Shown: positions 44,336-60,946 of the stretch, piece by piece
How positions within the stretch are numbered: the stretch's first letter is position 1
Layout: every line of letters starts with the position of its first letter
NCBI GenBank assembly: GCA_965261545.1
Contig: CBDHDF010000011.1
Coordinates: 384,001-448,000, forward strand
DNA: 64,000 bases
DNA from: Bdellovibrionales bacterium
Lineage (GTDB): Bacteria > Bdellovibrionota > Bdellovibrionia > Bdellovibrionales > UBA1609
Direction: 5' to 3'
Notes under the pieces: model-generated
The model's input: only the letters and a program-made list of their open reading frames with translations
What the model was told of the DNA's origin: nothing
Databases searched by the model: none
Position numbers and translations under genes: made by a program

Positions 44336-45656
44336 GCAAAAAATCTCCTTTCATGGGAGCGGTAAGGCTCACCACAAGATTTGTTTCTATTGGAATAGTG
44401 ACATAAGGAACCAAGTGATTTAGTTCCGATGCCTGACGTTGAGACTCCATATCCGCCACCTTAGAGGCTCCGTGGTAAAAAGCATTTTTTAGGGTGGCTT
44501 TTGGAGTGATGGATACAGAACTAGGACTAGAGCCAGAACCAGAACCAAATTTAGATCTTCCAAGAGCCTCCTTTTGAGTCAAAGTTTCGGTCATGCCCGC
44601 AACCATGCTGAGTCCTAGAATGGAAGCCATTTTCCCACCTCGGCGACTGTGGTATTTTCCAGAAAGGCCCGGTCGATGACTCCTAGGAGCCAGTGCTTCG
44701 GCCTGCAAACCAAACTCATTTCCATTGGGAAGAACACCCTTTGAGAAATGAATAAAAACTTTTTTCCCTTTCCCTGGATAGCGAATGCTGCCTATAAGAA
44801 TCGTCTCTTTGGGAAGTTGCCCCCGATCTCGTTCCTTAAACCTTCCGCCCTTGGGAAGTCTCACCCTCACCCATGCACCCTCTTGTCGGGTATCAATGGC
44901 ACTGAGTAATTGGCCCTCAAAATAAGTGCCTGTGGGTAGTGCCAATGATTCGTGGTCTTCTTCCCGTACAATGACTTGTGGGGCTTTGTACTTAATGGGT
45001 GAAGCCTGGGAAAAAGCCACTCTCTGACTTCTTCCATTTCCTTGATTTTGGTCTCGTTGGTAACTTCGGCGTCTTTGGTTTCTATACCTTTGGTTTTGGT
45101 GTCTTTGACTGTCATGCCCCTCATGTTCTTCATGCCCTTTATATCTATATCTTTCATATTTTTGATTTTCATGACCTTGACTTTCATGCATTTTACCTCC
45201 ATGGTTCCCTTGGAACCCATGGCGTTTATGGGCTTCCTGGGTCTCATCGGAATGACTTGCACTTATGTCAGAAATTCCACCTAACAAAGGGGGCTGCTTT
45301 TTCCTTGTGTGGGAACCTGCTTGCCTTTCTTGGGATATCCCCCATGAGCCTTCGTGAGTTTCATCCCCTTGAGGGAGAAGCCCTAGGGATTGATTGTCTT
45401 GAAGTTGACTTCCTGGCAGTTGACTCCCTTGGAAAGGGCTTCCTCGGAGTTCTCTCCTAATAAAACTGCTGTCGTGAGAATCTAACATAGCTATAAAAAT
45501 AAGAACTATGGCGGATGAGGGAATTAAAACAAAAAAGAATCTATTGGACTTGATGACGTTCTTGCCAGCTTCCTTAATATAGAAAAAACCCATTGTTTTT
45601 CTTAAAAACTTCTTCAACTTCTTCAAATTTTTCAAAGAAAATGATTCATGACTCAT
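44328..45656 (-). CDS. VirB10/TrbI/TraM-like T4SS core protein
   Basis: TM anchor, disordered linker, LPTGTYFEGQLLSAID beta-domain; operon position. Confidence 0.72.
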   Translation of the reverse strand: MSHESFSLKNLKKLKKFLRKTMGFFYIKEAGKNVIKSNRFFFVLIPSSAIVLIFIAMLDSHDSSFIRRELRGSPFQGSQLPGSQLQDNQSLGLLPQGDETHEGSWGISQERQAGSHTRKKQPPLLGGISDISASHSDETQEAHKRHGFQGNHGGKMHESQGHENQKYERYRYKGHEEHEGHDSQRHQNQRYRNQRRRSYQRDQNQGNGRSQRVAFSQASPIKYKAPQVIVREEDHESLALPTGTYFEGQLLSAIDTRQEGAWVRVRLPKGGRFKERDRGQLPKETILIGSIRYPGKGKKVFIHFSKGVLPNGNEFGLQAEALAPRSHRPGLSGKYHSRRGGKMASILGLSMVAGMTETLTQKEALGRSKFGSGSGSSPSSVSITPKATLKNAFYHGASKVADMESQRQASELNHLVPYVTIPIETNLVVSLTAPMKGDFLHE

Positions 45657-46753
45657 AGGAACCTCTTTTTAATGATGATTCTTCTGGTTTCTTGCTGGTA
45701 TCCCAAGTGGAGGCTAAACCCTTTGTTCTCCATAATTTTAAATATAATGCGGCAGACTTGGGTTTGACCCACAGGAATTTCATGGTTTTCAAAAATGGAT
45801 TCAAATTGAGGTAAAGCCTTACCAGACCTTGTCATCCATAATCGAATGTCAGAGGTCTTAAGAGCCTTTTTTGATATATTCCAGAGTTCAATATCTATGA
45901 AATAAAGACCTTCATGGTTTAAGCTCTCAATATTGGAAATCATCCCAACTATCTTGCGCTTGATGCCTATTCTTAGCCCTCGGTCTGGAGTAGGGCGCTG
46001 GAGCAATGGAGCCGAACCATGGGAAGGAGGAATAGTCCGATGAGAATAGGAAGTAGGCTGATGGGCAGATGAAATAGATTGGCGAGGAGAGGAAATAGAT
46101 TGGTGAGAAGATGAACGCTTCTTTCTTTGATGGATTTTGTTGGTCTTGTTGGTGACTTTCCTCTGACCATTTTTTTGACTTCTTCGGCTCTTTCTATAAA
46201 CTGCATTGCTTCGGGAAGACCTCCATCGAACCTTTACTAAATCATCGTATTTACTCCCTGAGCTTAGCACCCTCAAGATAAACCCGTAGGTATGGTATTT
46301 GCCATAAACAAAGAGATTGGTGCTCATGGGTCCCTGGGGCTGTATCGTGACATCATTGCCAATAAATTCTATTTGAAAATAATTCTGATTCCCAATGACA
46401 ACTTTTTTGGGGCGTTCATGGAAGCGTAAAATCGTGGATTGCCCCATCTTCAAATAAATAGATTTCATTTTTTCATCATTCATCTCAAGAGTTCTGATAG
46501 AGCCAGCCCTTAGAGATGTTCCATAAAAGAGGATAGCAGCACACATTATGTTTATGCTAAAATTTATCACCCTTATTATTGTCCTAGCCGCTTTTACTGA
46601 TATCGTCATCCGTATCGCTCTTGTCATCCTTACTGCGTTTACCATTTCTGTCACTCTGGTCGCCCTAGTCGCCTTTATGGCCACCGCCGAGCTAGCCACC
46701 CTTGTCGCCTTTATCGCTTTTGCCGTTCTTACAACCAACAGTTTCTTGCTCAT
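45653..46753 (-). CDS. VirB9/TrbG-like T4SS secreted protein
   Basis: IYLKMGQSTILRF.E.P..VVIGN...TNLFVY pattern; operon position. Confidence 0.65.
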   Translation of the reverse strand: MSKKLLVVRTAKAIKATRVASSAVAIKATRATRVTEMVNAVRMTRAIRMTISVKAARTIIRVINFSINIMCAAILFYGTSLRAGSIRTLEMNDEKMKSIYLKMGQSTILRFHERPKKVVIGNQNYFQIEFIGNDVTIQPQGPMSTNLFVYGKYHTYGFILRVLSSGSKYDDLVKVRWRSSRSNAVYRKSRRSQKNGQRKVTNKTNKIHQRKKRSSSHQSISSPRQSISSAHQPTSYSHRTIPPSHGSAPLLQRPTPDRGLRIGIKRKIVGMISNIESLNHEGLYFIDIELWNISKKALKTSDIRLWMTRSGKALPQFESIFENHEIPVGQTQVCRIIFKIMENKGFSLHLGYQQETRRIIIKKRFL

Positions 46754-47376
46754 TTACTGACCTCATGGATAGTTTCATGAATGGTAATTCCGTCAACATA
46801 TAAGCCCATGGGATTCCACACTGTGGGGTTGTTCCGAATAATACGAAAAGACAAGCGGGTGGGGGCAATGAGGGGGATATTGTTCACTCTTACAATTCTG
46901 TCAAAAGAAGCTAAGGCTTGGCTTTGGGTCACAATGGGTTTTATATTAGCGACTGTTTGCTCAATTTTCTTGTTGAATTCTTTTTGGGTAAAGTCTTTTT
47001 TTATTTGGTGTCTCATCTTTTGAAGAAGCCCCTTTGTCGTGAGGGGAGAAATATTTTCAAGAGCTGAGATGGGGTTGGAATCACTCCATGTATAGCGAAG
47101 CCTGATATATTCTTCAAGGAAACGGGCAATGTCCTTTTCAGAAAGATGAATCTCTCTTTTCTCGGAGGAGTAAAACCTCTTCTCCTCTCCATTTTGAAGA
47201 ACCACCACCGGAGGGTTGGTGGACAAGTAGAATGAGAAAATTGTGAGTGAAAAACATAGGAGTCCCAATAAAACTCCCATGAGCTTGTAGAGGTAGAGCA
47301 CCTTGTTGAGGGCCACCCATTGGTTTGAGGGTTGAGTACGATTTTTTGTCACTGTTTTAATCATGGTCTTTGTCAT
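46750..47376 (-). CDS. VirB8/TraK-like protein
   Basis: Single TM, FLEEYIRLRYTW, C-terminal NPMGLYV motif. Confidence 0.7.
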   Translation of the reverse strand: MTKTMIKTVTKNRTQPSNQWVALNKVLYLYKLMGVLLGLLCFSLTIFSFYLSTNPPVVVLQNGEEKRFYSSEKREIHLSEKDIARFLEEYIRLRYTWSDSNPISALENISPLTTKGLLQKMRHQIKKDFTQKEFNKKIEQTVANIKPIVTQSQALASFDRIVRVNNIPLIAPTRLSFRIIRNNPTVWNPMGLYVDGITIHETIHEVSK

Positions 47377-48640
47377 GTTTTTCTCCTTCTTCCAAACTTG
47401 AATGGATATCCTTAGACGTTGATTTAAAATCTGATTTAGAATTTGACTCAGAGCTTGGCTTAGAGTCTGATCTAGAGTCTGGCTTAGGAGTTGATTTGGC
47501 AGTATTTTTAGGAGCCACTTTGGAAGTTTCCAGTGAAGTTTGATGCCTCCATATATTTCTTATGGGCGATAGCCATCGACTTTCTCCAAACTTGGCTGGT
47601 TTCCATGGTGAACCCGTGGACAATTCTTCGGATAACTCTTTGGTTGGCCTCAATGAGTCTTTGGAATCTCTTAATTCTGCGCCGATGCCCATATGTGAGC
47701 CGCCGAAACCTGTGACTGCGGTGAAAGTTCTAGCTGCTTTGGTCGATCGAATCGCCCTTGTCGGTCTAGTCAGTTGCCCCATTGAGCCCATGAGTGAGGA
47801 GGAGCCAGCAGGTGGTGGTGTCTCTGTGTTCGTAGATGATCCACCTAGAGTTCTTGCAAGAGCCCCTCGACCTTTTCGACTTAAGATTCCTTTCAGAGTT
47901 CCACTTAAAGCAATGGCTGGAGCCAGTGCTAAGGCGGATGCTGTTTTGGAGAGTCCGTCATTGATAAGAGACCTTGTGGTCAGAGGAGTAAACAACATGG
48001 ACAAACCAATGCAAAGGTTCATCATAATGGTGTATAAGAAGTTTTCCATATCTACCACTTGGGGATTAGTGGCTATTTTTAGAAGTATCACACCGAGGAT
48101 GGACCACATGATTTTCCATAAAACCACATTGATGAGCCCCTTGTAGAGATTCATTGCTATAAATGCAGTGTTTGCTGAAACATACATGAGTATCATTAAG
48201 GGAGAGCAGACATAAAGAACATGCCAAACAAATTGAACAAGGATATTGGCAATAAAAATACCTGCGTAAGCCACAACATAGGAGATCACACACAGGATGA
48301 ATACAATGCTTTCTCGTAGCTTGAGCCAACTCACTTCCATTTTCTGATAATTGGTTTCTAGGTGAACCAATAGATCCTTTAATTGGCCCATGGCATGTAT
48401 TTTCTGAGCAATTCCATCACCCAAGAAAGCAATTGTATTGAGACATTCTTCAAATGAAATAAGCATAATTATGGAGATCACAACCCTTTTTAGAATTTCA
48501 TGGACATTGGGGTTTTGTGATGGAATTTTAAAGAATTCTAAAATAATGGCTAAGAGGGTAAATGGAACCAAGAGAAGCCAGTAAAGCTCTCTTATATTCC
48601 CATGGATTTCTTGGCACACCTCGGATAAACCTTCAAACAC
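47357..48640 (-). CDS. VirB6/TrbL-like polytopic membrane protein
   Basis: Multiple TM helices, SPLMI motif, long low-complexity tail; operon position. Confidence 0.7.
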   Translation of the reverse strand: MFEGLSEVCQEIHGNIRELYWLLLVPFTLLAIILEFFKIPSQNPNVHEILKRVVISIIMLISFEECLNTIAFLGDGIAQKIHAMGQLKDLLVHLETNYQKMEVSWLKLRESIVFILCVISYVVAYAGIFIANILVQFVWHVLYVCSPLMILMYVSANTAFIAMNLYKGLINVVLWKIMWSILGVILLKIATNPQVVDMENFLYTIMMNLCIGLSMLFTPLTTRSLINDGLSKTASALALAPAIALSGTLKGILSRKGRGALARTLGGSSTNTETPPPAGSSSLMGSMGQLTRPTRAIRSTKAARTFTAVTGFGGSHMGIGAELRDSKDSLRPTKELSEELSTGSPWKPAKFGESRWLSPIRNIWRHQTSLETSKVAPKNTAKSTPKPDSRSDSKPSSESNSKSDFKSTSKDIHSSLEEGEKHDKDHD

Positions 48641-49368
48641 TATTTAAACCTCCGTAGTGAGAAATCAGGTTTGAGAGACTTCAAACCATTTTTCATATCT
48701 TTGTTAAATCTATTGAAAGCAACAACGCTATCTTTTCCGTACTTATTCGTCATGGCGAGATATTCACCTTGGAGTTTGAGTATCTGATTAAGAGTGTGTA
48801 AAATCTTGGCATTGCTTTCGGCCGTCATGCGCATGGCCCCCTTGGGTGAGGCCCCTCGGCTTTGCATGGAAATAATTTTTGAATTTTCCTCTTGCCTTTG
48901 GGCGTATGGCCCAATAAGCCCCACCATTTTAATGCTTTCGGCGACACTTTGGTCATGGAGCATCTGCATGGTGGATTCCATGCTGCGTGGAACTTCACCA
49001 TAGACCTTTACAATGGACTTATAGGCTCTATTAAAATCTTTCAGTCCACTTAAGATTTTGGCATCTTTGATGGGGAGTGAATGAAGCAGACCCACGGAAT
49101 TCTCTAGCCCCTCATTGATCAGTCTTAAATAGTTGTCCTTATTTTTCTCAGTTTCGAGAATCACTCTTAGTTGCTCATATCTTTTCATATTTTCTGAAAG
49201 AATGTTCGCCAAGTAGGGAACCTGTGCCCATCCAGCACCTGCATCGCCTAAGAAAGCATGGGAGCATGGAACTGCAAAGAGATGAATCCCTATGGAAAGA
49301 AGAATGGCTTTTCGGATAAAGTCTCTTGTTTGTCGGATAAAATGTCTTATTCTATTGAGTGGTTCTAT
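48640..49368 (-). pseudogene. VirB5/TrbJ-like secreted protein with a damaged 5' end (ORF-called part 48640-49212)
   Basis: An in-frame signal-peptide-like stretch (IRKAILLSIGIHLFAVPCSHA) lies upstream of 49212 with no in-frame ATG; the RBS is followed by an out-of-frame ATA. Confidence 0.55.
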
Positions 49369-52100
49369 GGGGCCTCCTTTTTGCCTTCAAAGGCAATTTT
49401 TTTAAGAATTTCTAACTTTGGTAGTTTTGGATATTTTCTTGCCATGGCTTCAATGGCAGCCTTATCAAAACCATCTGTGGTGCATATCCAGTAGCTCAAA
49501 GGGTCTGGGGTGAGCCGAATGACAGCCTTATTTTCATCTTGCATAAAAAAGAACTCACTGAAACTCCCCTTTTCAAGGGAAAGGCTTTTGATGACTTCCA
49601 CTTCGTCGTTGTTAAAGTCCATGACCTCTTGGAAATCCTTCCAGTCTATTTTCTTTTGGCGGAGAATAAAGACACTTGCTGTATTGGGAAAAATGGCATT
49701 TTTGATTTCTTGGCTAGAGAGAAAATCCTTGTAGTTTTGGCTAATACACCAAATGCCTCCATTGAACTTCCTAAAGGTGCGGTAGGCTTCCATGGCAAAG
49801 CTGAGGCCACTGGGTGTTTCAAAGAGTTTCCATGCCTCGTCGATAATGAGAAGGTAGGGAGTGGAGAGGTCACGGGCAGCTTCACTCTTTATAAAATCTG
49901 TAAAGAGGAGCAAGAAAACGTTTTGTAAATCGGGGTAGGCGTCAAGCCCCTTCGTCTCAATAGTGATAAGGTCTTTAGTGAGCTTCACATTGCTGGGACC
50001 ATCCAGCATTTGACCGTAGGCGGTGTTTCCCGTCCAAGAGTAAAGAGTTTGAGCAAAGTTTCTCATCTCTAAGACTTCATGTTCAGAGAGGACTTTTCTC
50101 AAATCTGATAAAATGGGCATTCGACCCTTGGTTTGTTCATTGTTGGCTTGCTTATGGATTTGCTCACTGGCCTGCCCATGATTTTCTTGTTCATTGTTGG
50201 TTCGCTTATTGGTTTGCTCATTGACCTGCTCACTGTTTGCTTGCTCATAGGTTTTAAAGATAGCCTCTTCGAGAAGGGCTTTTTCTCTCTTGGGAAGCCC
50301 TCTTTTTTCCTCATCCTTCAGGATGGACTCCAGCACAGCCAAGATCAGCTTCACCTTTGATGTTGTGGGCGTGGTTTGAGTCGTAGGGGTGGTCTGGTCT
50401 TCTGACGAAAGATCAAACATATTGAGCCTTATCTTTGAGTCTATGTTGAGGTTGATAAACTCACCCCCGTGGACTTCAAGCAGCCTTTGGGAAGAAGCCC
50501 CGTTGTCCACCCAAATGATTTTGGGTCTTGGAGTTTGGGTGCAAAATTGCAACATCATTTGAGAAATAGTAAAGCTCTTGCCCACGCCAGAGCCGCCAAA
50601 GATGAGGGCGTTCCAGTTGGTAAGCTCTTTGGCAAAGGGGTCCATGGAAAACAAAACTCCATATCTATTTGGAAACAAGCACACGGGTTTGCTGTGCCCC
50701 CTCCAATAGGAATAAAGGGGCATCAAGTGGGCGACATTGGAGCTTTTCATTTTTTTGGGTCTGAGCCCATGAGTGCTTCCGGGAAAAGTCATGGAAAAAG
50801 CTTCAAAACCTGGCAAGGTCTCCACCACCCCCTCAGATTGATTCATTCGCTTAAAGGCACTCAGTACCTCATCTGCTTTTTCTGTTAGCTCCTCTCTTCC
50901 CTTGCCCCAAATAATCACATTGAGATCTGTGGAGACGAGTTTTTCTGAACCCTCAAGCAGCTCTCTCATTAAATCCTCAATCTGATAGAGCTTGGACTCA
51001 GATTCTAGGTCACTGATATTTTGCGGACTTGAGGTCATGGAGTGGGCAAGCCTTCTTTGCACTTTTAACTTCTCAACCTCTGACTTTTGCCTGTGAATCT
51101 GGATATTTTGCAAAAGCCAAAAGTGGAAGGGTAGGCTTGTGAGATGATGGATCATGGCCGCATGGGTTTCTTCTTCGGGAAGGGTCTTCATTGTGATAAC
51201 TTGAAAGAAGTAGTTCCCACACTTTATACAATCCTCATAGATGCCTATATCCGTAAAGAGGATTTGGTGGGCAAGGCTTGGGGCAAAAAGGTCGTAAAAC
51301 TCTGACAAAGGCTCATGGAGGCCAAATTTTGACGAAGGGGGCTCAAGTTCCCCAAGTTCTAGTGAAGGCTCAAATTCCCCAATCCCTGACGAAGGCTCAA
51401 AGTCTTCAAGTTCCTCAATATCTGCTGGGGACTCAGTATCACCAAGATCAGAGAGACCAGAAAAGTCACCAAGGTCAGCAAGTCCGCCATGCTCCTTCCA
51501 ATGGGGAGGGCCAACCTTCTCACTGCGAGAGAGATTGAAGTATTCAAACAACAGGCCGGCCCACTGTGAACTCTCAAGTTCTACAGGGGCAAGTCCTCCA
51601 TCCTTGAGTAAAAAGAAAAGTTGCCTGCGGTTTCTTTCAAAGGTTTTCTTGTGTTCATCGTACTCTTGCTTGGAAGACTGCTGAAATTTCTCTTGAGATT
51701 TCCAAAATCCTTGGCGTTTATACTTAAGGGGCTCTCCCCGAAGAAACAAGTAAGTTTCTGGCAAGAAATACTCGCCTTGGTGCTTGTTCAAGAAATCAAT
51801 TCTTGCCTGCACTATCTCTTGTTGTGCTTTATTTGAGGTCACCGAGATTTTTTCATGCTCTTTGATGGTTTCAGAGACATGGGGAGTTAACCTGTAAAAG
51901 ACCTGGAGAGATAGACCTTCAGGAATGGAAGTCAGAAGGCTCCCCATCCTTCTATTAAAGTTGTTGACGCTCTCGGTGGAAGTGCAACTTATATCCATGC
52001 CATTGAGTTTAAATCCTGCCCCTAGGGAGCCATCGGAAAAAACCATGAGATTTTCATCAAAGTGCCAAATGGGTAGTTTATCTGCGAGAGCGTGAGTCAT
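49365..52100 (-). CDS. virB4: VirB4/TraC-family conjugative ATPase
   Basis: NALIFGGSGVGKSF, VDNGAS, LIIDEAW, RTFRKFNG...ISQ. Confidence 0.92.
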   Translation of the reverse strand: MTHALADKLPIWHFDENLMVFSDGSLGAGFKLNGMDISCTSTESVNNFNRRMGSLLTSIPEGLSLQVFYRLTPHVSETIKEHEKISVTSNKAQQEIVQARIDFLNKHQGEYFLPETYLFLRGEPLKYKRQGFWKSQEKFQQSSKQEYDEHKKTFERNRRQLFFLLKDGGLAPVELESSQWAGLLFEYFNLSRSEKVGPPHWKEHGGLADLGDFSGLSDLGDTESPADIEELEDFEPSSGIGEFEPSLELGELEPPSSKFGLHEPLSEFYDLFAPSLAHQILFTDIGIYEDCIKCGNYFFQVITMKTLPEEETHAAMIHHLTSLPFHFWLLQNIQIHRQKSEVEKLKVQRRLAHSMTSSPQNISDLESESKLYQIEDLMRELLEGSEKLVSTDLNVIIWGKGREELTEKADEVLSAFKRMNQSEGVVETLPGFEAFSMTFPGSTHGLRPKKMKSSNVAHLMPLYSYWRGHSKPVCLFPNRYGVLFSMDPFAKELTNWNALIFGGSGVGKSFTISQMMLQFCTQTPRPKIIWVDNGASSQRLLEVHGGEFINLNIDSKIRLNMFDLSSEDQTTPTTQTTPTTSKVKLILAVLESILKDEEKRGLPKREKALLEEAIFKTYEQANSEQVNEQTNKRTNNEQENHGQASEQIHKQANNEQTKGRMPILSDLRKVLSEHEVLEMRNFAQTLYSWTGNTAYGQMLDGPSNVKLTKDLITIETKGLDAYPDLQNVFLLLFTDFIKSEAARDLSTPYLLIIDEAWKLFETPSGLSFAMEAYRTFRKFNGGIWCISQNYKDFLSSQEIKNAIFPNTASVFILRQKKIDWKDFQEVMDFNNDEVEVIKSLSLEKGSFSEFFFMQDENKAVIRLTPDPLSYWICTTDGFDKAAIEAMARKYPKLPKLEILKKIAFEGKKEAP

Positions 52101-52408
52101 AGAATCCTCTTTTGTCTTTTGGGTTCAAATTTTCCTACATTGCCAGCACTATAAACCCCTGGAGTCATCTTGTAGGTTAGGAGGTGAAGGAAGTAGTTCT
52201 CAGGCTTATTTCTTTTGACGAAATACAAGACCACAGCCATCATCACGGGTAAAATGAAAACAAGGTAGGTGGCCAAGAAGGTGGAGCCAAAAAATAGATT
52301 CATGGTGGCTGCAAATAGGAGAATAAAAAGAAGATCGTGAGCCTCCATGCCCACAATCTTAAGTTTGGCATCTAGTCTTCGATGAATTCTTGAAGTCTCC
52401 AAAGCCAT
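52097..52408 (-). CDS. VirB3-like membrane protein
   Basis: Two TMs, KIVGME, immediately upstream of virB4. Confidence 0.65.
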   Translation of the reverse strand: MALETSRIHRRLDAKLKIVGMEAHDLLFILLFAATMNLFFGSTFLATYLVFILPVMMAVVLYFVKRNKPENYFLHLLTYKMTPGVYSAGNVGKFEPKRQKRIL

Positions 52409-52867
52409 TTAGTACCCCACCGCAGCTTGGAACCAGCTAATAATATGGGGAGCAAGAAAGCCCACAATACTGCATACAATCACCATGATGATTCTGCCCT
52501 TGGCGGCACCATCTCCTGTAAGGGCGAGAATCACCGCATACACAAGGCCCAAAACACTTATAAGGGGAAGTATCACGGTCATAAGCTGATTTGTGAGCCC
52601 CTTCATGCGGCTTTCAAAGCCACTTCCAAGAAGCTGAGACCACGCTGTTTCTGAGTAGTAAAGGGCCAACATCACCAAGAAAAAAATGGCGACCCACTTC
52701 AAAGAAGCCCTTAAGGTTGTGAATTGATTCATTTTGTCCACTTCGTTCGCCACGTTTGCCTTGTTCGTCTCGTTCACCTTGCTTACTTCGTTCGCCTCGT
52801 TTACTTTGCTCATCTCGCCCGCTTTGTTCATATTGCTCATCTCGTTTACCTTACTCATCTTGCTCAC
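52409..52867 (-). CDS. TrbC/VirB2-like pilin
   Basis: Signal-like segment plus two hydrophobic helices; upstream of virB3/virB4; repetitive N-terminus. Confidence 0.7.
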   Translation of the reverse strand: MSKMSKVNEMSNMNKAGEMSKVNEANEVSKVNETNKANVANEVDKMNQFTTLRASLKWVAIFFLVMLALYYSETAWSQLLGSGFESRMKGLTNQLMTVILPLISVLGLVYAVILALTGDGAAKGRIIMVIVCSIVGFLAPHIISWFQAAVGY

Positions 52868-53264
52868 CTTCTGGGCTTCCCATAATAAGAGACCTACTAT
52901 AAGGACCGATATTCATAATCACATCCCCCTGGGTAAGAGCATTTGAGTGGCCTTCACCCACTGACTTGCGTGTCTTAAATTTTCCATTCTTTTTGATGAC
53001 CACCTCCACTCGATAGCGAGTTCGATCTCCCGTGGATAAAATGGGCTTGAGGTAGTATTGATTCTCTGGGTGTATATCAATTTTCAGTCGATATTCCCCA
53101 AAGTTATGCTCATGAAAAGCAACTCCTGCTGGGAAATGACGCTTTTCTTCTTTATCAAACCACCACAATTGAAATACTTTGGATTTCTTATCTCCTTGAT
53201 ATTCTTTAATTTTCTTATTTTTTTGATCTTCATGAGATGATTGAAAGTTCTTTGTTTTTTTCAT
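52851..53264 (-). CDS. Hypothetical protein (leading gene of the transfer operon)
   Basis: GGAGG RBS; small beta-rich basic protein. Confidence 0.65.
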   Translation of the reverse strand: MKKTKNFQSSHEDQKNKKIKEYQGDKKSKVFQLWWFDKEEKRHFPAGVAFHEHNFGEYRLKIDIHPENQYYLKPILSTGDRTRYRVEVVIKKNGKFKTRKSVGEGHSNALTQGDVIMNIGPYSRSLIMGSPEGEQDE

Positions 53265-53366
53265 GATTTATCCTCCAGAATTTGTTTTCAGAATCATCGA
53301 TTCTGATTCGGGTTCTTAGTTCTTATAAATCGTTGATATTTTTCCCATTCAACATAAATACATTCC

Positions 53367-53642
53367 CTAATTGTTCAGTTCATCCAGCATAGATTCCTTC
53401 ATTAGCTCTAAAGACTCATTAATAAGGTGATCTGTTTGAGACCAATCCAGATGAAGCACCATAGATATTTCTAAAATAGAAAAGTGATACCAAAATCGAA
53501 GTATAATAGAAATTTTATGTTTCTCTGGTAACCTTGCCACATGTTTCCTTACCCACTTTCTTCCATATTCAATAAGTTTCTTTTCATAAATGAATTGCTT
53601 CAAAAATAAATCCTCGCTTTTATAGGTTTGTAAGTCTTCCAT
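53367..53642 (-). CDS. Sigma-70 region 4-like HTH protein
   Basis: VARLPEKHKISIILRFW..FSILEISMVL. Confidence 0.65.
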   Translation of the reverse strand: MEDLQTYKSEDLFLKQFIYEKKLIEYGRKWVRKHVARLPEKHKISIILRFWYHFSILEISMVLHLDWSQTDHLINESLELMKESMLDELNN

Positions 53643-53645
53643 CCA

Positions 53646-54056
53646 CTAAGAAATGCGACGTAAATCTCCTTTCACGGGGTGTTGATGTTCATAACCACGA
53701 CCACCGCCATCACTATGACTATAGACATGCTGTTTATCCTCATGAATTTGGAGTTTTTGAGCCATATTAGCCTCTTTAGTCTTCTGAGCCTTCTTAAGTC
53801 CTTGAGACTGAGATTTGAGATGCTGACTTTTTGGAGGCTGAGACTTCGCATTCTCGTCATTGAGTACATCGTCAACTTCCTTGAGCATTTTTTCTAAATC
53901 AGCACACATGGGGTAGTAGTAGGATTGGCTTCTCAAAGCTTCCTCCTGGCTATCCCTAGGCTGCCAATTGCATGAATAGCAAATCGTGTAGGATTCTCTT
54001 TCTTCCAAACCTAAGCATTTGCACCTGGGGCATTGATTCAACGTATTCGTCTTCAT
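53646..54056 (-). CDS. Zinc-ribbon hypothetical protein
   Basis: CPRC...CYSC. Confidence 0.6.
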   Translation of the reverse strand: MKTNTLNQCPRCKCLGLEERESYTICYSCNWQPRDSQEEALRSQSYYYPMCADLEKMLKEVDDVLNDENAKSQPPKSQHLKSQSQGLKKAQKTKEANMAQKLQIHEDKQHVYSHSDGGGRGYEHQHPVKGDLRRIS

Positions 54057-54366
54057 ATTCGTATCCTTTCTTGATATTGATCTTGTAAATGCTCATATCC
54101 AGAGGATCGGAGCATACGTTTTGTTTATTGTCCTTAATCATTTCTGTTATGTAGTTTCTGACTCACCATCCTCTATCAGTTCAAAGGAAATCACAAAATG
54201 GCCAAATTTATACTTTCCCGTTCCTAAAGAGACAAAAATTGTCAGTCGTTACATTTAATTATTTTCTTTAATTTAAATTCTTTTCTTCAATTTCTTGGGT
54301 CGATAGAAATCAAATTCCAAACCTCCAAAATAATTAATTTAAAATTTCACCCCTCACGTTTATAGT

Positions 54367-54382
54367 TGCGAAATCTATGCCA
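54367..54382 (-). promoter_or_regulatory. sigma54 -24/-12 promoter facing the conjugative operon
   Basis: Minus strand TGGCATAGATTTCGCA: exact GG-N10-GC spacing, close to consensus TGGCAC-N5-TTGCW. Confidence 0.75.
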
Positions 54383-54399
54383 ACTTTATTTGTGAGATA

Positions 54400-54412
54400 T
54401 TTCAATGACTTA
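54400..54412 (+). promoter_or_regulatory. Putative IHF site upstream of the sigma54 promoter
   Basis: TTTCAATGACTTA vs consensus WATCAANNNNTTR (one mismatch), in the typical position. Confidence 0.45.
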
Positions 54413-54664
54413 GAGAGAAATAGAGTCGAATGACGAAAAGGAAAAAACTTTTTTAAGTACGAAATAAAGTACATAAAAAAAGAATTTATATTTATTTAAT
54501 ATCTTATAAATATATAGTAATGATTGATCAGATTATTTTTTAAGAAATTTATCTTGAAATAAATCATCTTTTATTGTATAATAATTTGTACATCATTTGA
54601 AAAATACTCCACAAAGAATTGAGATCAAGTTACGAAAGACATGAAAGAATAACTGGAGAGACAA

Positions 54665-56038
54665 TTGAGTGAAATATTGAAAGATCCATTAAAAAGCAAA
54701 GTCGTCAGTGTGCATGTTATAGAGGACAGCAAATTAGACTCTGAACTCATTCAAGATCTCATCAAAGTAGAACTAAGAAAGTGTGGATTGACCCCCAAGG
54801 TTTCAGCCACATTCAAAGAAAAAAGCTCTTATAGTGCTTTAAATCAAAATAACTATGATATTGTGGTTTTTGATATTGATCTAGATCGAAGAATGGCAGG
54901 GATTGACCTTCTTGGTATGTTTACTAAAAAGGTACAGTTTCCGATCATCTCCTCTTGCCGTGAGTCAGATGATATCGTAAAAAAAGCTTACAGTCTAGGT
55001 TGTGAGCACTTTTTAAACAAGCCTATCAAGCAGTCAAAGATTGCCCATCTGGTCGATCAATATACAAAGCAAATAAACTCCAAGAGCATCTTGCGAGTTA
55101 TAAAATCAAGATACATGACCCAAGATGAAGAGACCCTCAGTGAGCTTAATAAAGTCACTTCATCGAAAAATGCTCATTTATTTGGACCCACAGGGGTAGG
55201 CAAACAAATCGTCGCTGAACTTATTCATCATATACATTATGGCAACTCAAACCCCTTTGTTGAAAAGAACTGTTCATCTATCACAGAGTCTCTTGCGGAG
55301 TCCTTCCTTTTCGGCCATGAAAAGGGAGCCTTCACAGGTGCCAACAACCAAAGAAAGGGTATCTTTGAGCTTGCCAAGGGAGGCACCGTCTTCTTAGATG
55401 AAATCGATAAGACATCAAAGTCTTTTCAAGCCAAGTTATTAAAAGTTATAGAGAAAAAGGAAATTCAAAGGGTTGGATCTGAAAAATCAACACCTGTTGA
55501 CTTCTCGCTGGTCACAGCAAGTAGTACAGACCTTAATTTCCTTGTGGAAAACGATAAATTCTTACCTGATCTTTGGGAAAGGCTTCAGGTGGAGGTCATT
55601 CACTTGAAACCTCTGAAAGAACGTCCCTTGGATATAGAGCTACAAATGCAGAATTTCATTAGGCTTCATGAGTCAGGAAGACTGTTTGTCATCTCTGAAG
55701 AAGCCCATAAGTTTTTGATGAGTTACCACTGGCCAGGAAATACAAGGGAATTAAAAAACGTTGTGGACAGCTTACAAAGGAAGAATATCAAGATTCTTGA
55801 ACTCAAAGACCTTAAATTCTTACAAAAAAAATCCATCAGACAGCAATATGGCCTCGTCAATCAACAAATACTTCAGGCCATGGAACAAAATGGACTCAAA
55901 AATGTCGTCAATCAAATATGCCGGGAAGCAGTTCATCATTTTTTCACTCAAAATGATGGGAAAAGAAGAATCACAATGAGGCAGCTTGAAATTAGCTCAG
56001 ATACTTTATACAGACACTTAAAAGAAAATATGGGGTAA
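54665..56038 (+). CDS. sigma54-dependent response regulator (REC-AAA+-HTH, NtrC family)
   Basis: IED, VVFDIDL phospho-Asp, LNKP; GPTGVGK, FGHEKGAFTGA, FLDEID, WPGNTREL; C-terminal HTH. Confidence 0.95.
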   Translation: MSEILKDPLKSKVVSVHVIEDSKLDSELIQDLIKVELRKCGLTPKVSATFKEKSSYSALNQNNYDIVVFDIDLDRRMAGIDLLGMFTKKVQFPIISSCRESDDIVKKAYSLGCEHFLNKPIKQSKIAHLVDQYTKQINSKSILRVIKSRYMTQDEETLSELNKVTSSKNAHLFGPTGVGKQIVAELIHHIHYGNSNPFVEKNCSSITESLAESFLFGHEKGAFTGANNQRKGIFELAKGGTVFLDEIDKTSKSFQAKLLKVIEKKEIQRVGSEKSTPVDFSLVTASSTDLNFLVENDKFLPDLWERLQVEVIHLKPLKERPLDIELQMQNFIRLHESGRLFVISEEAHKFLMSYHWPGNTRELKNVVDSLQRKNIKILELKDLKFLQKKSIRQQYGLVNQQILQAMEQNGLKNVVNQICREAVHHFFTQNDGKRRITMRQLEISSDTLYRHLKENMG

Positions 56039-56041
56039 AAA

Positions 56042-56260
56042 ATGAATTTAACAAAAGAAGAAATAAAGCACGATTTGAAAAGAAATATAAGTTCTATTTT
56101 ATCTGGAACAACAATGATAATGAATAAGATTCCTAAGATAGATATTTATATTCGAGAAACAATAGAAGAAATAGAAAAGCAATGTGAACAAACATTTAAA
56201 CTGTTAGACATTTTCACGGAAAGTAAAGATGAAAATAAGAAAAAGCCAAAGGAGGTATAA
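56042..56260 (+). CDS. Small stand-alone HisKA/DHp-like protein
   Basis: IKHDLKRNISSILS resembles an H-box followed by a second amphipathic helix. Confidence 0.55.
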   Translation: MNLTKEEIKHDLKRNISSILSGTTMIMNKIPKIDIYIRETIEEIEKQCEQTFKLLDIFTESKDENKKKPKEV

Positions 56261-56261
56261 A

Positions 56262-56582
56262 ATGAGAAAAATATGGACCATACTTGTTGCTATGCTCGGA
56301 ATGTCGAGTAATGCATCTTCCGCATACTCTGGTTGCTATGATGAAGCCATGGAAGTTTCAACAGAAAGCAACCTTGAAGTGAGTCTAGAACAAAGTGCAG
56401 AAGAAGATTTTGATGAACTTGATAGAATCATGGATTTATACCCACATGCTAGTATTGATGAAAAAGTTGGAATGAGCTTTAAAGCACATAGAATAGCGGA
56501 TCGTCTTGAGCGTCAAGGTTTTGATGTTGCTGATTCTATGTCTCAATCATCAAGAACATGTGACTATTGTGTGAAACCATAA
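56262..56582 (+). CDS. Secreted peptide, candidate RiPP/pheromone precursor
   Basis: GGAGG RBS; signal-peptide-like N-terminus (MRKIWTILVAMLGMSSNASSA), acidic middle, C-terminal SMSQSSRTCDYCVKP. Confidence 0.65.
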   Translation: MRKIWTILVAMLGMSSNASSAYSGCYDEAMEVSTESNLEVSLEQSAEEDFDELDRIMDLYPHASIDEKVGMSFKAHRIADRLERQGFDVADSMSQSSRTCDYCVKP

Positions 56583-56627: not shown

Positions 56628-58184
56628 ATGAAAAATAAATTTATTTATATTATTTTATTTATATTCATTATTGTTATAACTTATAGTTTCATTCGTGAGC
56701 AAAGGAATAAGTCAATGTTGATTCAGACAAATTTAATAAGTTTTGAACCAGAAGACACAATGGACCCCACAAGACTCAGGTTTGTCCAAGAATATTTTGT
56801 GCTTGATAACGTCACGGCAAAGCTCACTCAAGTGGGAGACGATGGTGAATATAAAAATGATCTTGCTGAGCATATTAGTTTCTCTGATGATAAACTCACC
56901 ATAGATGTTCAATTAAAGAATGATGCTAGATTTAGTGATGGAAGCCCTATTTTAGCTCAAGATGTGGCTCAATCATTCAAAAGATCCATATTATGGGGAG
57001 TGCCCCATATTGATCTAAAAAATCTTTGGATAGGAGCCGATCAGCTTAAATCTATAAATGAAGATATACCAGGCATTGAGGTTTTATCCAACAAAGAGTT
57101 GCGACTCAAGCTTATCAAACCCACTAAAGAAGTTCTTTTTTTTCTCACAATAACCGACCTTGCCATACTCCATAAGAGTCAATATACAAAGACTCATTTA
57201 AAAGTTTCTGACTGGGAAAGAGTAACTTCTGGTGCTTATAGAATAGGCTACACCAATGAAGGTAGAGTCATGCTCATTTCTAATAAGAGTTCTCATAATT
57301 TTAAAGAGGCCATGCCTCAGAAAGTCGTTTTCAATGGGTATAAGAACGCCAATGTGATTCGACAAATTGAAGAAAAGAGCTTGGACTTTGGAATGTTGAC
57401 TCTCAGTGAATATTTTCCTAATGTAGAAAAAATTGAATCCTCCAAGGATTTTGATATTGTGAGCAATAAGACAGATGGTGTCGTTCATATTGTTCTCAAT
57501 GCCGCATCAGGGCCATTTGAAAATATTGAGAATCGTCAATGGATCCAGAAAAAAATGATGGAAACCTACAAAATTGATGAAAAAGACTCTTCTGTTTTAA
57601 CCAAAGCTCTTCAGTTTTTTCTCCCAAACTCCAAGGGTCATAAAGATGGTGCTGACGTTCTAAGCATTCTCAAAGACATTAATACTTCAAATATTCCTGA
57701 AGAATTAAAAAAAGGAATCACCATAAAAACTCTAGAAGGAATGAAGTATTTTTTACCGGATAATATGGAAATAAAATTATCTCAAACCTTAGGCATTCCA
57801 GTAAATTTGGAAATCAATATTCCAAAAAAAGAGTATTTTCAATCCATTGACAAAGAAAGAACTTTTGATGCCACTATTATGGCTATCTCCATGGACTATA
57901 AAGTTCTCAATGAGGCTCTCAATCTTCAATATTTATCTGAAAATAGTCCCCTTATCGATCCCACAGGGAAAATAAAAGAACTTCTTAAGTCCTATCAAGG
58001 TGAAGATGATCTTGAGAAAGAAAGTGAAATCATTAATAAGATATTGAATCAAATGATTTACGATTCAGAATCAATTCCCATTTTTTATTTTGCATCCCCA
58101 TTTCTTATAAAAAAAGATACCATTCAAAGCTCAAGTGTGAATTTTCATGAACCCATTAAATTTCACAAAATGGTGATGAAATGA
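56628..58184 (+). CDS. Family-5 (OppA/DppA-like) extracellular solute-binding protein, orphan
   Basis: N-terminal TM; MDP, DLAEHISFSDDKLT...LKNDARFSDGSPILAQDVAQSF, TSGAYRI. Confidence 0.88.
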   Translation: MKNKFIYIILFIFIIVITYSFIREQRNKSMLIQTNLISFEPEDTMDPTRLRFVQEYFVLDNVTAKLTQVGDDGEYKNDLAEHISFSDDKLTIDVQLKNDARFSDGSPILAQDVAQSFKRSILWGVPHIDLKNLWIGADQLKSINEDIPGIEVLSNKELRLKLIKPTKEVLFFLTITDLAILHKSQYTKTHLKVSDWERVTSGAYRIGYTNEGRVMLISNKSSHNFKEAMPQKVVFNGYKNANVIRQIEEKSLDFGMLTLSEYFPNVEKIESSKDFDIVSNKTDGVVHIVLNAASGPFENIENRQWIQKKMMETYKIDEKDSSVLTKALQFFLPNSKGHKDGADVLSILKDINTSNIPEELKKGITIKTLEGMKYFLPDNMEIKLSQTLGIPVNLEINIPKKEYFQSIDKERTFDATIMAISMDYKVLNEALNLQYLSENSPLIDPTGKIKELLKSYQGEDDLEKESEIINKILNQMIYDSESIPIFYFASPFLIKKDTIQSSSVNFHEPIKFHKMVMK

Positions 58185-59191
58185 AGCACGCTCAATCCTT
58201 AAATATTTTAAAGAATGTAATAAATTATTTTCAATCACTACCAGATCATCAATTAAAAGTGAAGGATATTAGTTCCGAGCATTTTACTCTTCCTTGCATG
58301 TTCTCTGTATCTGTTAACCACCGAGGAAATCAAATGCAAGGGTTCGGTCAATCTGAATCTAAAGATAAGGCTATTTTTATTGCTTTTATGGAAATTATTG
58401 AAAGAATCCTAATACCAAAGCCTAAAGACTTGACCTACTCACAGAAATATCTTTTTTTCTCTATCAGAAAAAATTATGAGGATCTTTTAAAGTCATTTCC
58501 TAGATCGAGAAATTGGGTTGAAGGCTCTTCCAATGGTTTTGCCATTCATTCGAGTAGAAAAATGGCTCAAAAATCAGCTCTTGACGAACTTATTGAGCGG
58601 CATGTTGTACTTAAAGCTCTTGTTTCTCAGTTTTCTCCGGCCAAGGTGTTAGCACCTAAAATACTTACCCATGGGAGCTATGTGATTCCCTCCGAGATGA
58701 CCTATGAGTTTTATGCTTGGTTAGGACCTTTGGGCAGACATGTGGTTCTTTTTAAATGCCAGATGAATTCAAAGGTGATCTATGGGTTTGGATGTGAGAA
58801 GAGTCTAGAAAGAGCCAAGGAGAAGGCTTTTTTTGAAGCTAGCTCTAGGATTATCGCACTCCACCGATCTCAGAATCCTTCCTTTGTAGTTCTCAATACG
58901 AGTAAAAATTTCCTTTATCATTGGTATGAGGAGACTGCCTGGACAGGAGGGTTTCTTAAAAAAGCCTCCCATGACATGCCCTCTATAGATCACCACCTTT
59001 CATACAGTGATTTTTGGTTTGGTGAACCTCCAAAAAATGAATTTCTCCACCAACTGGGCCTCCATGTGGTCAAGGCTGTTTCCCCAAAGATTCAGCCTCT
59101 CTTTGCAGGACACTGGAAGGCCAAATATATGAACCCCGAAGCTCTAGGGAATGACTACAGCTTTCCAGAAGACATGCATATGATTGGGTAA
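58181..59191 (+). CDS. YcaO-family protein
   Basis: GFG.....AIFIAFMEIIER; SSNGFAIHS....AQKSALDELIERH; GFGC....ERAKEKAFFE; GLHVVKAVSPKIQPL, the ordered YcaO motifs. Confidence 0.82.
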   Translation: MKHAQSLNILKNVINYFQSLPDHQLKVKDISSEHFTLPCMFSVSVNHRGNQMQGFGQSESKDKAIFIAFMEIIERILIPKPKDLTYSQKYLFFSIRKNYEDLLKSFPRSRNWVEGSSNGFAIHSSRKMAQKSALDELIERHVVLKALVSQFSPAKVLAPKILTHGSYVIPSEMTYEFYAWLGPLGRHVVLFKCQMNSKVIYGFGCEKSLERAKEKAFFEASSRIIALHRSQNPSFVVLNTSKNFLYHWYEETAWTGGFLKKASHDMPSIDHHLSYSDFWFGEPPKNEFLHQLGLHVVKAVSPKIQPLFAGHWKAKYMNPEALGNDYSFPEDMHMIG

Positions 59192-59197
59192 ATTGAT

Positions 59198-60946
59198 ATG
59201 AAAAATCGATCCATACGAATCTCTATTTTATTGGCAGCCACCATGAGTCTTTTGGCTCTTGCCACTGTGATGCTGATATTCTTATCAAAGCACGAGGTGG
59301 AAAGAATTCAAGCCAATACTCAATCCCTGGTGCGTGAGCAAATAGAACTCACAGTTAAGAAATTAGATATCTATAGAGTGGTCAATCAAATATCATATAT
59401 TCTCAATATCACTTTCAATCTGGATCGTGTGAATGGAGTCAATATCTTTGATTCCAAATGCAACTTAGTGGATAAGCAACCTGTTAATTTTAAAATCCCA
59501 TGGGACTGTAAGAGCCCTCACCCTGATTCTATGGTTCTTTATAAATCTCAAACCTCGATTTCTGACTCTTCAGGAGCCCCCAAATATATATTGGCTCGCC
59601 TCAAAGATGAGCCCCATATTCTCTTGAATCACCATAGCTTGAAGGTTCTCGTCATATCATTAGTTTTGATTCTTATCACTTTACTTTGCTTGAACTTTTT
59701 AATGAAAAAACATATTCTAAGGCCCATTGACGATTTGGTAAGAATCATTAGAAAACCTGGCGCCCTTGAGAGGAATAGTCAGAAACAAAAAAAGCTCCCC
59801 TTGGAACTAAGAGAAATTTATAATGATGTTTTGTCTCGTGACGAAATCATCCAGCAGAATAAAATTGAACTACTCAAAAGAAATGAAATGGAAACACGAA
59901 GCCATTTAAGTGAGCAAGTCGCCCATGATATCAGGTCACCCATTATGATTCTTAGAGACTACCACTTAAATCACTTAAATTTACATAGAAACGAGGATAC
60001 AAAAGAAAGCGTATACCTCAATGCCATTAACGATCTGGACCTCCTCACCAAGCAATTGATTGAAGACTCTAGTGAGTATGCAAAAAATGTCAATCTCGTG
60101 GGCTTAATGGATGCCCTCGTCGACATGAAAGAAGTTGAATTTCAACAAGGGCCTAAATCTAAGATATTGTTGAATCCTCAGTCTAAGAATTTGAAGATTA
60201 AAACCAATCCCACAAAATTAAAATTTGTTCTTTCCAATATTATCAACAATGCAAGGGAGGCTTCTAAGCATGATGATCCTTGTGAGATTCAAATCAAGTT
60301 GACAAGAGGGGGGCCAGACGCCTTCATTGAAATTGAAGATAACGGGAAAGGTATCAAAAAATCAGACCTCAAGAGAGTTTTTTCCCGAGGGGTGAGCATA
60401 GACAAGCCTGGAGGCAACGGCTGGGGACTTAGTGATGCTAAAAAATTTATTGAAAGCCAAGATGGGACCATCGAGATAGATTCAGAACTCGACAAGGGAA
60501 CCACTGTTAGAATAAAGCTCCCCATATTTCTCTCAAATTTTCAATCTCGTGGGCAGGCTCCCTTTGACCATGTTTTGGTGGAAGACTACAAGCTCAGCCA
60601 ACTTCTATGGCTTGGAAAGGCCGATAGCAAGAAGCTCAACTTTGCAGCCTTCTCCTCACCCTCAGAATTTTTAGAGAATATGGAACTGGTGAGTCCCAAT
60701 GCCACCTTGTATATCGACTCTCACTTTCCCGATTTTCCCATGCGTGGCGAAGAATGGGCCAAGGAGCTTTACAATAAGCACGGATTCAAAGAAATATATA
60801 TGTGCTCTACATCCTCCATCGACATCACCGACATGCCATGGGTCAGAGGGTGCGTTGCCAAGCATAAGCCTTTTGAGATTGTCACTACAACCTCTGTTTC
60901 TTTAACATCTCATGTAAAGAAAACGTTCCCGTGGAGTACCCTATGA
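59198..60946 (+). CDS. Membrane sensor histidine kinase with degenerate C-terminal receiver-like domain
   Basis: Two TMs around a periplasmic domain; VAHDIRSP, NIINNAREA, DNGKGI, GNGWGLS. Confidence 0.93.
   Translation: MKNRSIRISILLAATMSLLALATVMLIFLSKHEVERIQANTQSLVREQIELTVKKLDIYRVVNQISYILNITFNLDRVNGVNIFDSKCNLVDKQPVNFKIPWDCKSPHPDSMVLYKSQTSISDSSGAPKYILARLKDEPHILLNHHSLKVLVISLVLILITLLCLNFLMKKHILRPIDDLVRIIRKPGALERNSQKQKKLPLELREIYNDVLSRDEIIQQNKIELLKRNEMETRSHLSEQVAHDIRSPIMILRDYHLNHLNLHRNEDTKESVYLNAINDLDLLTKQLIEDSSEYAKNVNLVGLMDALVDMKEVEFQQGPKSKILLNPQSKNLKIKTNPTKLKFVLSNIINNAREASKHDDPCEIQIKLTRGGPDAFIEIEDNGKGIKKSDLKRVFSRGVSIDKPGGNGWGLSDAKKFIESQDGTIEIDSELDKGTTVRIKLPIFLSNFQSRGQAPFDHVLVEDYKLSQLLWLGKADSKKLNFAAFSSPSEFLENMELVSPNATLYIDSHFPDFPMRGEEWAKELYNKHGFKEIYMCSTSSIDITDMPWVRGCVAKHKPFEIVTTTSVSLTSHVKKTFPWSTL

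Follow-up and report, generated by a model that had tools for sequence, protein, structure and literature searches.

The locus described here raises the question of which promoter switches on the genes of a type IV secretion system (T4SS) and whether a signalling cassette next to them is in control. It lies in a 64,000-nucleotide stretch of a Bdellovibrionales genome (assembly GCA_965261545.1, contig CBDHDF010000011.1, positions 384,001 to 448,000; hereafter the window, whose coordinates are used throughout). An element in this window carries T4SS genes on the minus strand and, divergent from them, a cassette on the plus strand headed by the gene of a bacterial enhancer-binding protein (bEBP). 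The two sets of genes are separated by a 608-bp spacer, bordered by the open reading frames (ORFs) 53646-54056 (minus strand) and 54665-56038 (plus strand), with a GC content of 26% compared with 40% for the window overall. We consider it likely that positions 54367-54382 of the minus strand are a functional, activator-dependent sigma-54 promoter. Sequence comparison supports the grouping of this putative -24/-12 site, a repeat upstream of it, and the divergently encoded activator into one sigma-54 enhancer-promoter unit. Other loci used for comparison are designated by L numbers, genomes by G numbers, and contigs by C numbers.

The candidate promoter reads TGGCATAGATTTCGCA on the minus strand (TGCGAAATCTATGCCA on the plus strand at the same positions). 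Its GG (54381-54380) and GC (54369-54368) are separated by exactly 10 nucleotides (nt), the canonical GG-N10-GC spacing of the -24 and -12 elements, and 9 of the 11 fixed letters of the enteric consensus TGGCAC-N5-TTGCW are matched. The site is oriented towards the minus-strand genes that begin at 54056 and continue down to about 38072, a run of ~16 kb that includes two leader genes and holds the T4SS genes. The original prediction, made from the sequence alone, had placed a GG-N10-GC motif here pointing into a ~16-kb operon, and had described the adjacent divergent gene as a GAFTGA-containing activator and the repeat AAGTAC(G/A) near 54455-54475 as a possible upstream activating sequence (UAS); sequence, spacing, direction, activator, and repeat were all found as described. 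The bare GG-N10-GC pattern is common, with 267 matches in the window. The fuller TGGCAY-N5-TYGCW occurs twice against an expectation of 0.22, and 2 of 100 shuffles reach that number; the other match, at 2713-2728 on the minus strand, lies between two genes of an IS21-type element and is probably due to chance. Scored with a crude weighted consensus, TGGCATAGATTTCGCA reaches 13 of 15.5 and is the best of the 16 sigma-54-like sites that score at least 12 between 36 and 64 kb of the window. Within those 28 kb, no site scoring at least 12 is present on the plus strand upstream of the signalling cassette, the nearest plus-strand match being at 61572.

The repeats AAGTACG (54455-54461) and AAGTACA (54467-54473) together form the motif GTAC-N8-GTAC. 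The window contains a single instance of this motif, against 0.12 expected (at least one turned up in 12 of 100 shuffles). Across the 4.3-Mb genome there are 13 instances, counting one in each of the two copies of this spacer. Of 384 searched genomes of the order, a single one yielded an ortholog of the activator, with 54% identity (G264, locus L045), and G027 yielded a 37% identical relative (L046); a scan of further genome contigs returned one unrelated receiver-domain match (27% identity), and a scan of metagenome contigs returned no match. The L045 cassette comprises a YcaO enzyme, a binding protein of the SBP type, a Cys-tailed 99-aa protein, a 71-aa H-box protein, and the bEBP, and diverges from a T4SS of another subtype (VirB4 30% identical). 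Its spacer contains three GTAC-N8-GTAC sites, which are all such sites within 14 kb, and the sequence TTGGCAC-N5-TTGAG. The centre of one GTAC site lies 84.0 bp from the GG midpoint, equal to the distance in the window. The two spacers have otherwise diverged, since an alignment with MAFFT failed to place the shared motifs opposite one another. The C-terminal helix-turn-helix (HTH)-like tails of the window and L045 bEBPs are nearly identical, and the tails of seven other bEBPs are different. The recurring GTAC sites and the similar tails fit an activator-specific enhancer at a conserved distance from the promoter. At the more distant locus L046, a homolog of the zinc-ribbon-like leader gene is divergent from the bEBP gene, with a TrwB-type coupling protein and a VirB11-like ATPase further on; its promoter region holds TGGCAA-N5-TTGAA and TTTCAATGCGTTA, the latter 11 nt farther from the -24 element than in the window.

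The activator has the receiver and AAA+ domains of a response-regulator bEBP. Pfam matches were obtained for Response_reg (E = 1.1e-10), Sigma54_activat (PF00158; 167 bits against a cut-off of 20.2), and AAA_lid_14, and residues D21, D70, and K119 are invariant across an alignment of nine bEBPs. The Pfam family HTH_8 was not matched by the protein, although its tail can be aligned with the tail of the bEBP from L027, a protein that does match HTH_8. The host encodes a complete RpoN (507 aa, with the AID, CBD, and DBD domains), and its genome contains 22 matches to the sigma-54 activator domain and four genes of the HU/IHF family, among which IHF and HU members were not told apart.

A comparable layout is found at other T4SS loci. 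In both L036 and L037, two paralogs in this genome whose VirB4 proteins are 41 to 47% identical, a bEBP-SBP-YcaO-kinase cassette runs divergently, and their spacers contain two dyads of the AATTCT-N6-AGAATT type, TTCAATAACTTA, and TGGCAA-N5-ATGCA directed towards the T4SS leader. Three CTACAA-N4-TTGTAG dyads accompany GG-N10-GC sites of the TGGCC type in the related loci L028 and L075, and L070 has CTCCACTT-N8-AAGTGGAG together with TGGCAC-N5-TTGCG. In L026, a perfect IHF consensus lies 15 nt upstream of TGGCAC-N5-TCGCA. One layout is thus common to several activator/enhancer pairs that differ in sequence. Eleven loci have a divergent bEBP gene: six carry an exact GG-N10-GC directed to the T4SS, three carry TGGCA with G(A/T) at this same spacing, one has its site on the other strand, and in one none was seen. 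In a first count of 15 leader spacers (5,910 bp, 500 shuffles), the pattern TGGY-N7-NYGC was found in 8 spacers on the T4SS-directed strand and in 0 on the opposite strand (shuffle mean, 0.42; maximum, 3), and TTGGCA was found in 11 spacers on the directed versus 3 on the opposite strand (shuffle mean, 0.96; maximum, 5). This set includes alignable pairs (L036/L037, L031/L032, and L024/L025), and L045 and L046 were chosen via the activator.

The element itself is present twice, with window positions 35815-60876 corresponding to G000:C2:11010-35593. The copies are 96 to 98% identical, except in the region from 45.1 to 47.8 kb (the VirB9-like gene and its neighbours), where identity drops to 85 to 91%, pointing to recombination or to more rapid change in exposed parts. 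Their spacers differ at nine positions, none of which falls within the motifs; as only ~0.7 differences would be expected there, the comparison of the copies is uninformative on motif conservation.

Between the candidate promoter and the repeat, the original prediction had also noted an IHF-like site at 54400-54412. The 13-mer TTTCAATGACTTA is present there with one mismatch to WATCAANNNNTTR, a match that does not exceed chance. The window as a whole contains 126 one-mismatch matches to WATCAANNNNTTR against 125.8 expected, and the IHF-like site is by itself uninformative because the count is at the chance level. The 12-mer TTCAATGACTTA within it is a candidate site for IHF or another bending protein: the related pattern TTCAAT[AG]ACTTA has seven matches in the genome, four of which sit 15-20 nt upstream of the -24 elements of T4SS leaders, and sites akin to TTCAATGACTTA are found in L046 and L026.

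Several observations weigh against a sigma-54 promoter at 54367-54382. Only 57 of the 398 genome matches at a crude score of 13 are intergenic, which is not above the 17% intergenic share of the genome, and intergenic enrichment begins only at scores of at least 14. A position weight matrix (PWM) derived from the 22 top intergenic sites in this genome gives TGGCATAGATTTCGCA 15.6 bits, a level reached by 64 genome matches, 30 of them intergenic (5-22 and 1-5, respectively, in three shuffles); the test is partly circular because 22 of the intergenic matches are the training set. When the same PWM was used as a yardstick for the paralogs, their TGGCAA...ATGCA sites scored below 11 bits; it was judged overfitted and was not relied on. 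The predicted start would leave a leader of 300 nt before the first well-supported start codon, and a sigma-70-like match (9/12) at 54601-54573 on the minus strand is an alternative promoter. In the ortholog L045, the -12 element TTGAG has A in place of C, giving GA rather than GC, and G without C at -12 also occurs in L046, L023, L029, and L027; the other strong candidate sites of this genome have GC. A relaxed -12 pattern (TGGCAY-N6-YG without C) was tried in this genome and discarded, as it is not enriched intergenically (27/624 intergenic versus 412/3936 coding). In addition, the compared loci are related, and several sites were picked by eye ahead of the blind counts. Taken alone, the motif score is borderline evidence for a sigma-54 promoter; the support comes from comparison.

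One alternative is that the motif is a chance occurrence, that sigma-70-type promoters read the T4SS genes, and that the bEBP controls only its own cassette or a distant target. The motif score by itself does not discriminate against this explanation, to which the sigma-70-like match on the minus strand lends an actual candidate promoter, and good GG-N10-GC sites do face bEBP cassettes in four loci (L029, L032, L076, and L067) and three times elsewhere in this genome. In the window, by contrast, the cassette has no comparable site upstream of it and the best match overall is TGGCATAGATTTCGCA; the ortholog repeats both the GTAC-N8-GTAC motif and the 84 bp that separate it from a TGGCA element; and the 15 spacers show an excess on the directed strand. 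We therefore regard a chance motif as unlikely.

A wider survey of 40 more loci, nine of which were excluded from the count as too short, gave a less uniform picture. A bEBP gene is present in the fetched stretch of 9/13 earlier loci and 23/31 further loci of at least 9 kb, or 32/44 together; three distant T4SS loci (VirB4 ~31% identical) have no bEBP gene. Within the non-coding DNA up to 3.5 kb upstream of the T4SS, canonical sites occur on the directed strand in 13/43 loci and on the opposite strand in 6/43, and the 30 new loci alone give 5 versus 6, which again counts against the sigma-54 interpretation; the canonical sites on the opposite strand partly face bEBP cassettes (L076, L067, and L051). 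Motif conservation in homologous elements, proposed originally as a check on the promoter, is accordingly partial: canonical directed sites are found in 8/15 leader spacers, but in the wider survey the share falls to the 13/43 loci given above, and the ortholog has GA at -12. The shorter TGGCA[CTA] is found on the directed strand in 35/43 loci (61 matches) and on the opposite strand in 20 loci (26 matches). Its distance to a following YGC favours the directed strand at N9 (9 versus 2 loci), N19 (12 versus 2), and N20 (9 versus 1), with 7 versus 6 at N10. The enriched spacings are thus GG-N9-GC, N19-20 (the sigma-70-like geometry TTGGCA-N16/17-TGCAAT), and N24, and the lack of enrichment at N10 is a further point against a sigma-54 promoter. 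The T4SS-leader promoters look heterogeneous because these distances form several classes, and each class with a spacing other than 10 is kept across genera. TGGCAY and a TTGCA-like sequence are found with a GG-to-GC distance of 19-20 nt in L050-L054, L057, L062, and L068; 9 nt in L052, L063, L067, L080, and L084; and 8 nt in L024 and L025.

These spacings bear on a second alternative, in which TTGGCA is the target of another factor, e.g., the sigma-70-region-4 proteins of the element acting on a -35-like hexamer, and the likeness to a -24 element is incidental. Sigma-54 is known to require a fixed -24/-12 spacing. Both the directed excess of TGGCA[CTA] and the many distances at which YGC follows it would be accommodated by such a factor. 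In the window, however, there is no -10-like hexamer 16 to 18 nt past TTGGCA, and GG-N10-GC is exact. Six of the 11 loci in which the bEBP gene is divergent likewise argue against it, as they have exact, T4SS-directed GG-N10-GC sites, each preceded by dyads of its own, and we know of no bEBP that acts other than through sigma-54. We consider this explanation very unlikely.

The extent of the transcript is a separate matter, since the promoter may serve the two small leader genes alone rather than all 16 kb. The second leader protein resembles region 4 of sigma-70 factors, and Pfam Sigma70_r4 homologs of this 91-aa protein head the T4SS genes in L023, L026 to L029, L036 to L038, and L045. A cascade can therefore be envisaged that shares its first step with the reading preferred here: a real sigma-54 promoter would give a short transcript for the two leader proteins, which would then activate internal T4SS promoters, making the dependence of the T4SS genes on sigma-54 purely indirect. 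Small Sigma70_r4 proteins at the head of the T4SS genes in most sister loci fit this scheme, as do gaps of 103 bp (53265-53366), 153, 285, and 335 bp within the run and the TTGGCA-N16/17-TGCAAT of many sister loci, a sigma-70-like geometry that an element-encoded factor might read. On the other side, a search for terminator-like sites between 54400 and 53600 was negative; the terminator-like matches along the operon are at chance (21 versus 18.2), as are the sigma-70 promoters there; and the genes along much of the run abut or overlap. No site of the TTGGCA-N17 type was seen inside the window operon, though none was looked for. We treat the cascade as a possibility of rather low probability. 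No Rfam match was obtained in 52500-56500 at E values up to 1, and a 61-aa ORF at 53956-54141 was rejected as a gene on the grounds of its overlap with the 136-aa ORF and its lower conservation between the element copies (91.8% versus 99.3% identity).

The nature of the secretion system itself was assessed from its protein families. P-loop_TraG, TraC_F_IV, and TrbI (VirB10-type) passed their Pfam cut-offs, giving a VirB4-family ATPase and a mating-pair-formation component; the pilin and CagX matches were below cut-off, and the NCBIfam TraC and VirB9 matches were far below theirs. Against PLSDB, the VirB4 protein shows at most 28% identity, and 4306 of the best 5000 matching plasmid records are predicted to be conjugative. 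Pfam and NCBIfam recognised neither a relaxase nor a coupling protein of the VirD4 type between 34 and 54 kb, where several ORFs have no family match, and the sole candidate translocase in the run is an FtsK/TraB-like ATPase (42836-44335). Conjugation is therefore a presumed function of this system. In the leaders of L036 and L037, ~100 to 200 nt past the promoter and ahead of the first gene, G/C runs surround repeated CATTTGTAAAC-like words, which could be an origin of transfer (oriT) or a regulatory site. The positions of the features discussed are collected in the table.

Table. Features of the spacer, the T4SS gene run, and the signalling cassette (window coordinates)
Feature	Position	Strand	Description
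T4SS gene run	38072-53264	-	137-aa protein, VirB2-like pilin, VirB3-like, VirB4/TraC-like ATPase, VirB9-like, VirB10/TrbI-like, FtsK/TraB-like ATPase, unnamed others
Second leader gene, 91 aa, sigma-70-region-4-like	53367-53642	-	NCBIfam SigW-/SigV-type region 4, far below cut-offs
First leader gene, 136 aa, CxxC...CxxC zinc-ribbon-like	53646-54056	-	Homolog divergent from the bEBP gene in L046
Predicted transcription start	54356	-	~12 nt past the C of -12; arithmetic from the usual sigma-54 geometry
Candidate site for IHF or another bending protein, TTCAATGACTTA	54401-54412		Related 12-mer recurs upstream of T4SS leaders
Putative proximal enhancer (UAS), GTAC-N8-GTAC	54457-54472		Centre 84 bp upstream of the GG midpoint
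Sigma-70-like promoter of the activator gene, TTGAAA-17-TATAAT (11/12)	54554-54582	+	Consensus match only
Degenerate second GTAC site, GTATAATAATTTGTAC	54576-54591		7/8 GTAC letters; 119 bp from the proximal site
Response-regulator bEBP	54665-56038	+	Receiver domain (REC), AAA+ with GAFTGA, C-terminal HTH-like tail
72-aa protein with histidine-kinase H-box-like motif	56042-56260	+	No Pfam match itself
117-aa candidate signal precursor	56229-56582	+	N-terminal hydrophobic leader, Cys-containing C-terminal tail
SBP_bac_5 (OppA-like) binding protein	56628-58184	+	N-terminal membrane anchor or signal
YcaO-family enzyme	58181-59191	+	Family match
Sensor histidine kinase	59198-60946	+	Two transmembrane segments, ~115-aa periplasmic loop

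The far GTAC site of the window has a counterpart in the ortholog, whose spacer carries one 115 to 127 bp from its proximal sites. In the window, GTATAATAATTTGTAC coincides in part with the -10 box of the sigma-70-like promoter that belongs to the activator gene itself and is therefore a possible autoregulatory operator, which hints at autoregulation of the activator through this site; sigma-70-like matches in the region are at the number expected by chance. GG-N10-GC sites aimed at bEBP genes or cassettes were located at G000:C2:538215-538230, C10:140167-140182, C11:301244-301259, L029:4904-4919, and L032:1444-1459 and in the L076 spacer (4921-5670), and they suggest positive feedback in some elements.

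The gene content of the cassette suggests that it reads a peptide signal. The 72-aa H-box protein has a 42% identical homolog in L045, and the gene at the same position in L046 matches Pfam HisKA; a small protein consisting of hardly more than a histidine-kinase H-box/dimerisation motif always comes right after the activator gene (window 56042-56260, L045:2405-2620, and L046:10127-10408). Proteins of 90-117 aa that begin like a signal peptide and end in a short Cys-containing tail precede the SBP genes in the window and elsewhere (L036:12221-12535, L037:6844-7131, L029:3119-3409, L026:3630-3902, and L045:2109-2408). These Cys-tailed proteins appear to be precursors meant for the YcaO enzyme encoded next to them. 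None of the ORFs scanned beside the OppA-like gene matched a permease or ATPase family, so the OppA-like protein fits sensing better than uptake. In other cassettes, the place of YcaO is taken by a radical SAM enzyme (L031 and L032) or by hydrolases (L027 and L046), and this variety suggests that the signal chemistry is interchangeable. The kinase gene is directly followed by ZorA- and ZorB-like genes (Zorya anti-phage system; 60931-63291), which lie outside the duplicated element. At the other end of the window, positions 1-34000 are dense in insertion sequences (IS21, ISL3, IS3, IS4-type, and others), several of them multicopy, and contain a gene for a TIR-domain protein and a type I restriction-modification locus that seems to be disrupted.

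Together these parts suggest how a sigma-54 circuit could operate here. RNA polymerase carrying sigma-54 would wait on TGGCATAGATTTCGCA as a closed complex. The OppA-like protein would help the membrane kinase to sense a secreted product of the cassette, probably a YcaO-modified peptide derived from the Cys-tailed precursor, and the kinase would phosphorylate the bEBP, presumably at Asp70. The activator would then assemble on GTAC-N8-GTAC, 84 bp upstream of the -24 GG, and open the closed complex, probably assisted by bending at TTCAATGACTTA by IHF or another bending protein. Transcription would begin near 54356 and run through a leader of ~300 nt into the zinc-ribbon and region-4-like genes, after which it would either read through into the T4SS genes or leave their activation to the two leader proteins. 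In this scheme, we infer where transcription starts, that it depends on rpoN, the phosphorelay, what kind of signal is sensed, how far the transcript extends, and that the T4SS transfers DNA. The original prediction that conjugation is sigma-54 dependent and gated by a peptide thus stands in part: comparison supports the unit of promoter, enhancer, and activator, while the peptide is suggested by gene content and the components that would identify conjugation were not among the families recognised.

The proposed circuit resembles several known systems in parts. In the enteric NtrB/NtrC-glnAp2 system, a kinase likewise phosphorylates a REC-AAA+-HTH activator, whose dyad binding sites lie ~100 bp ahead of a GG-N10-GC promoter and which opens the sigma-54 closed complex there, and NtrC may also occupy its own sigma-70 promoter. 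The output in the window, however, is a T4SS leader rather than nitrogen assimilation, the input is a periplasmic binding protein with a membrane kinase, and one full and one degenerate enhancer site are present, as judged here from the DNA sequence. The LuxO quorum circuit of Vibrio also connects a cell-cell signal, through membrane kinases and in one branch a periplasmic binding protein, to a REC-AAA+ bEBP and sigma-54 promoters. LuxO, however, drives small RNAs, is active at low density, and answers to non-peptide signals, and the window bEBP is not a LuxO ortholog (185.7 bits with NCBIfam NF041946 against a cut-off of 800). In pCF10 and pAD1 of Enterococcus and in ICEBs1 and pLS20 of Bacillus, the element's own secreted-peptide system, with an OppA-like protein, times the transfer genes. 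There, imported peptides bind regulators in the cytoplasm that work at sigma-A promoters, whereas the window element belongs to a Gram-negative lineage, its parts suggest sensing from outside by a two-component system, a bEBP, and sigma-54, and its cassette includes YcaO.

Transfer genes of plasmids and integrative elements answer to repressors, LuxR- or RRNPP-type quorum regulators, or stress sigma factors. The original prediction had called sigma-54 control unusual for transfer operons, and full-text literature searches turned up no report of a T4SS or conjugation operon under the control of sigma-54 and a bEBP that the element itself encodes. In the available portions of a review of integrative and conjugative elements (PMC5812530), the lone mention of rpoN is the title of a reference, and the sigma factor discussed for ICEclc is RpoS. 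Another secretion-machine cluster does have a sigma-54 activator of its own, VasH, which as far as we are aware has no receiver domain or comparable signalling cassette. VasH is a bEBP encoded inside the type VI secretion system cluster of Vibrio cholerae (PMC3439928), hence not a T4SS.

If the sigma-54 reading is right, the locus unites a promoter and an enhancer, each of 16 nt and a fixed distance apart, with a candidate bending site and all the parts of a sensor cassette. Because a sigma-54 promoter stays silent unless its activator is at work, such a circuit would give the element an unusually tight off state and a signal-dependent switch. Sister elements in the same genome use different enhancer "words," which makes insulation between co-resident elements directly testable. 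Even if the circuit is otherwise ordinary, it would still be a clean new case of enhancer-dependent transcription outside model organisms. More tentatively, T4SS elements of this Bdellovibrio-related order might carry plug-in quorum-sensing modules, each with a secreted signal modified by a YcaO, radical SAM, or hydrolase variant, an OppA-like co-receptor, a membrane kinase, and a private bEBP and enhancer, that license transfer via the host's sigma-54. If that is true, each element would talk only to its own kind before moving, several non-cross-reacting "dialects" would exist per genome, and the modules would be a Gram-negative, sigma-54 counterpart of the pheromone-controlled conjugation of Gram-positive bacteria.

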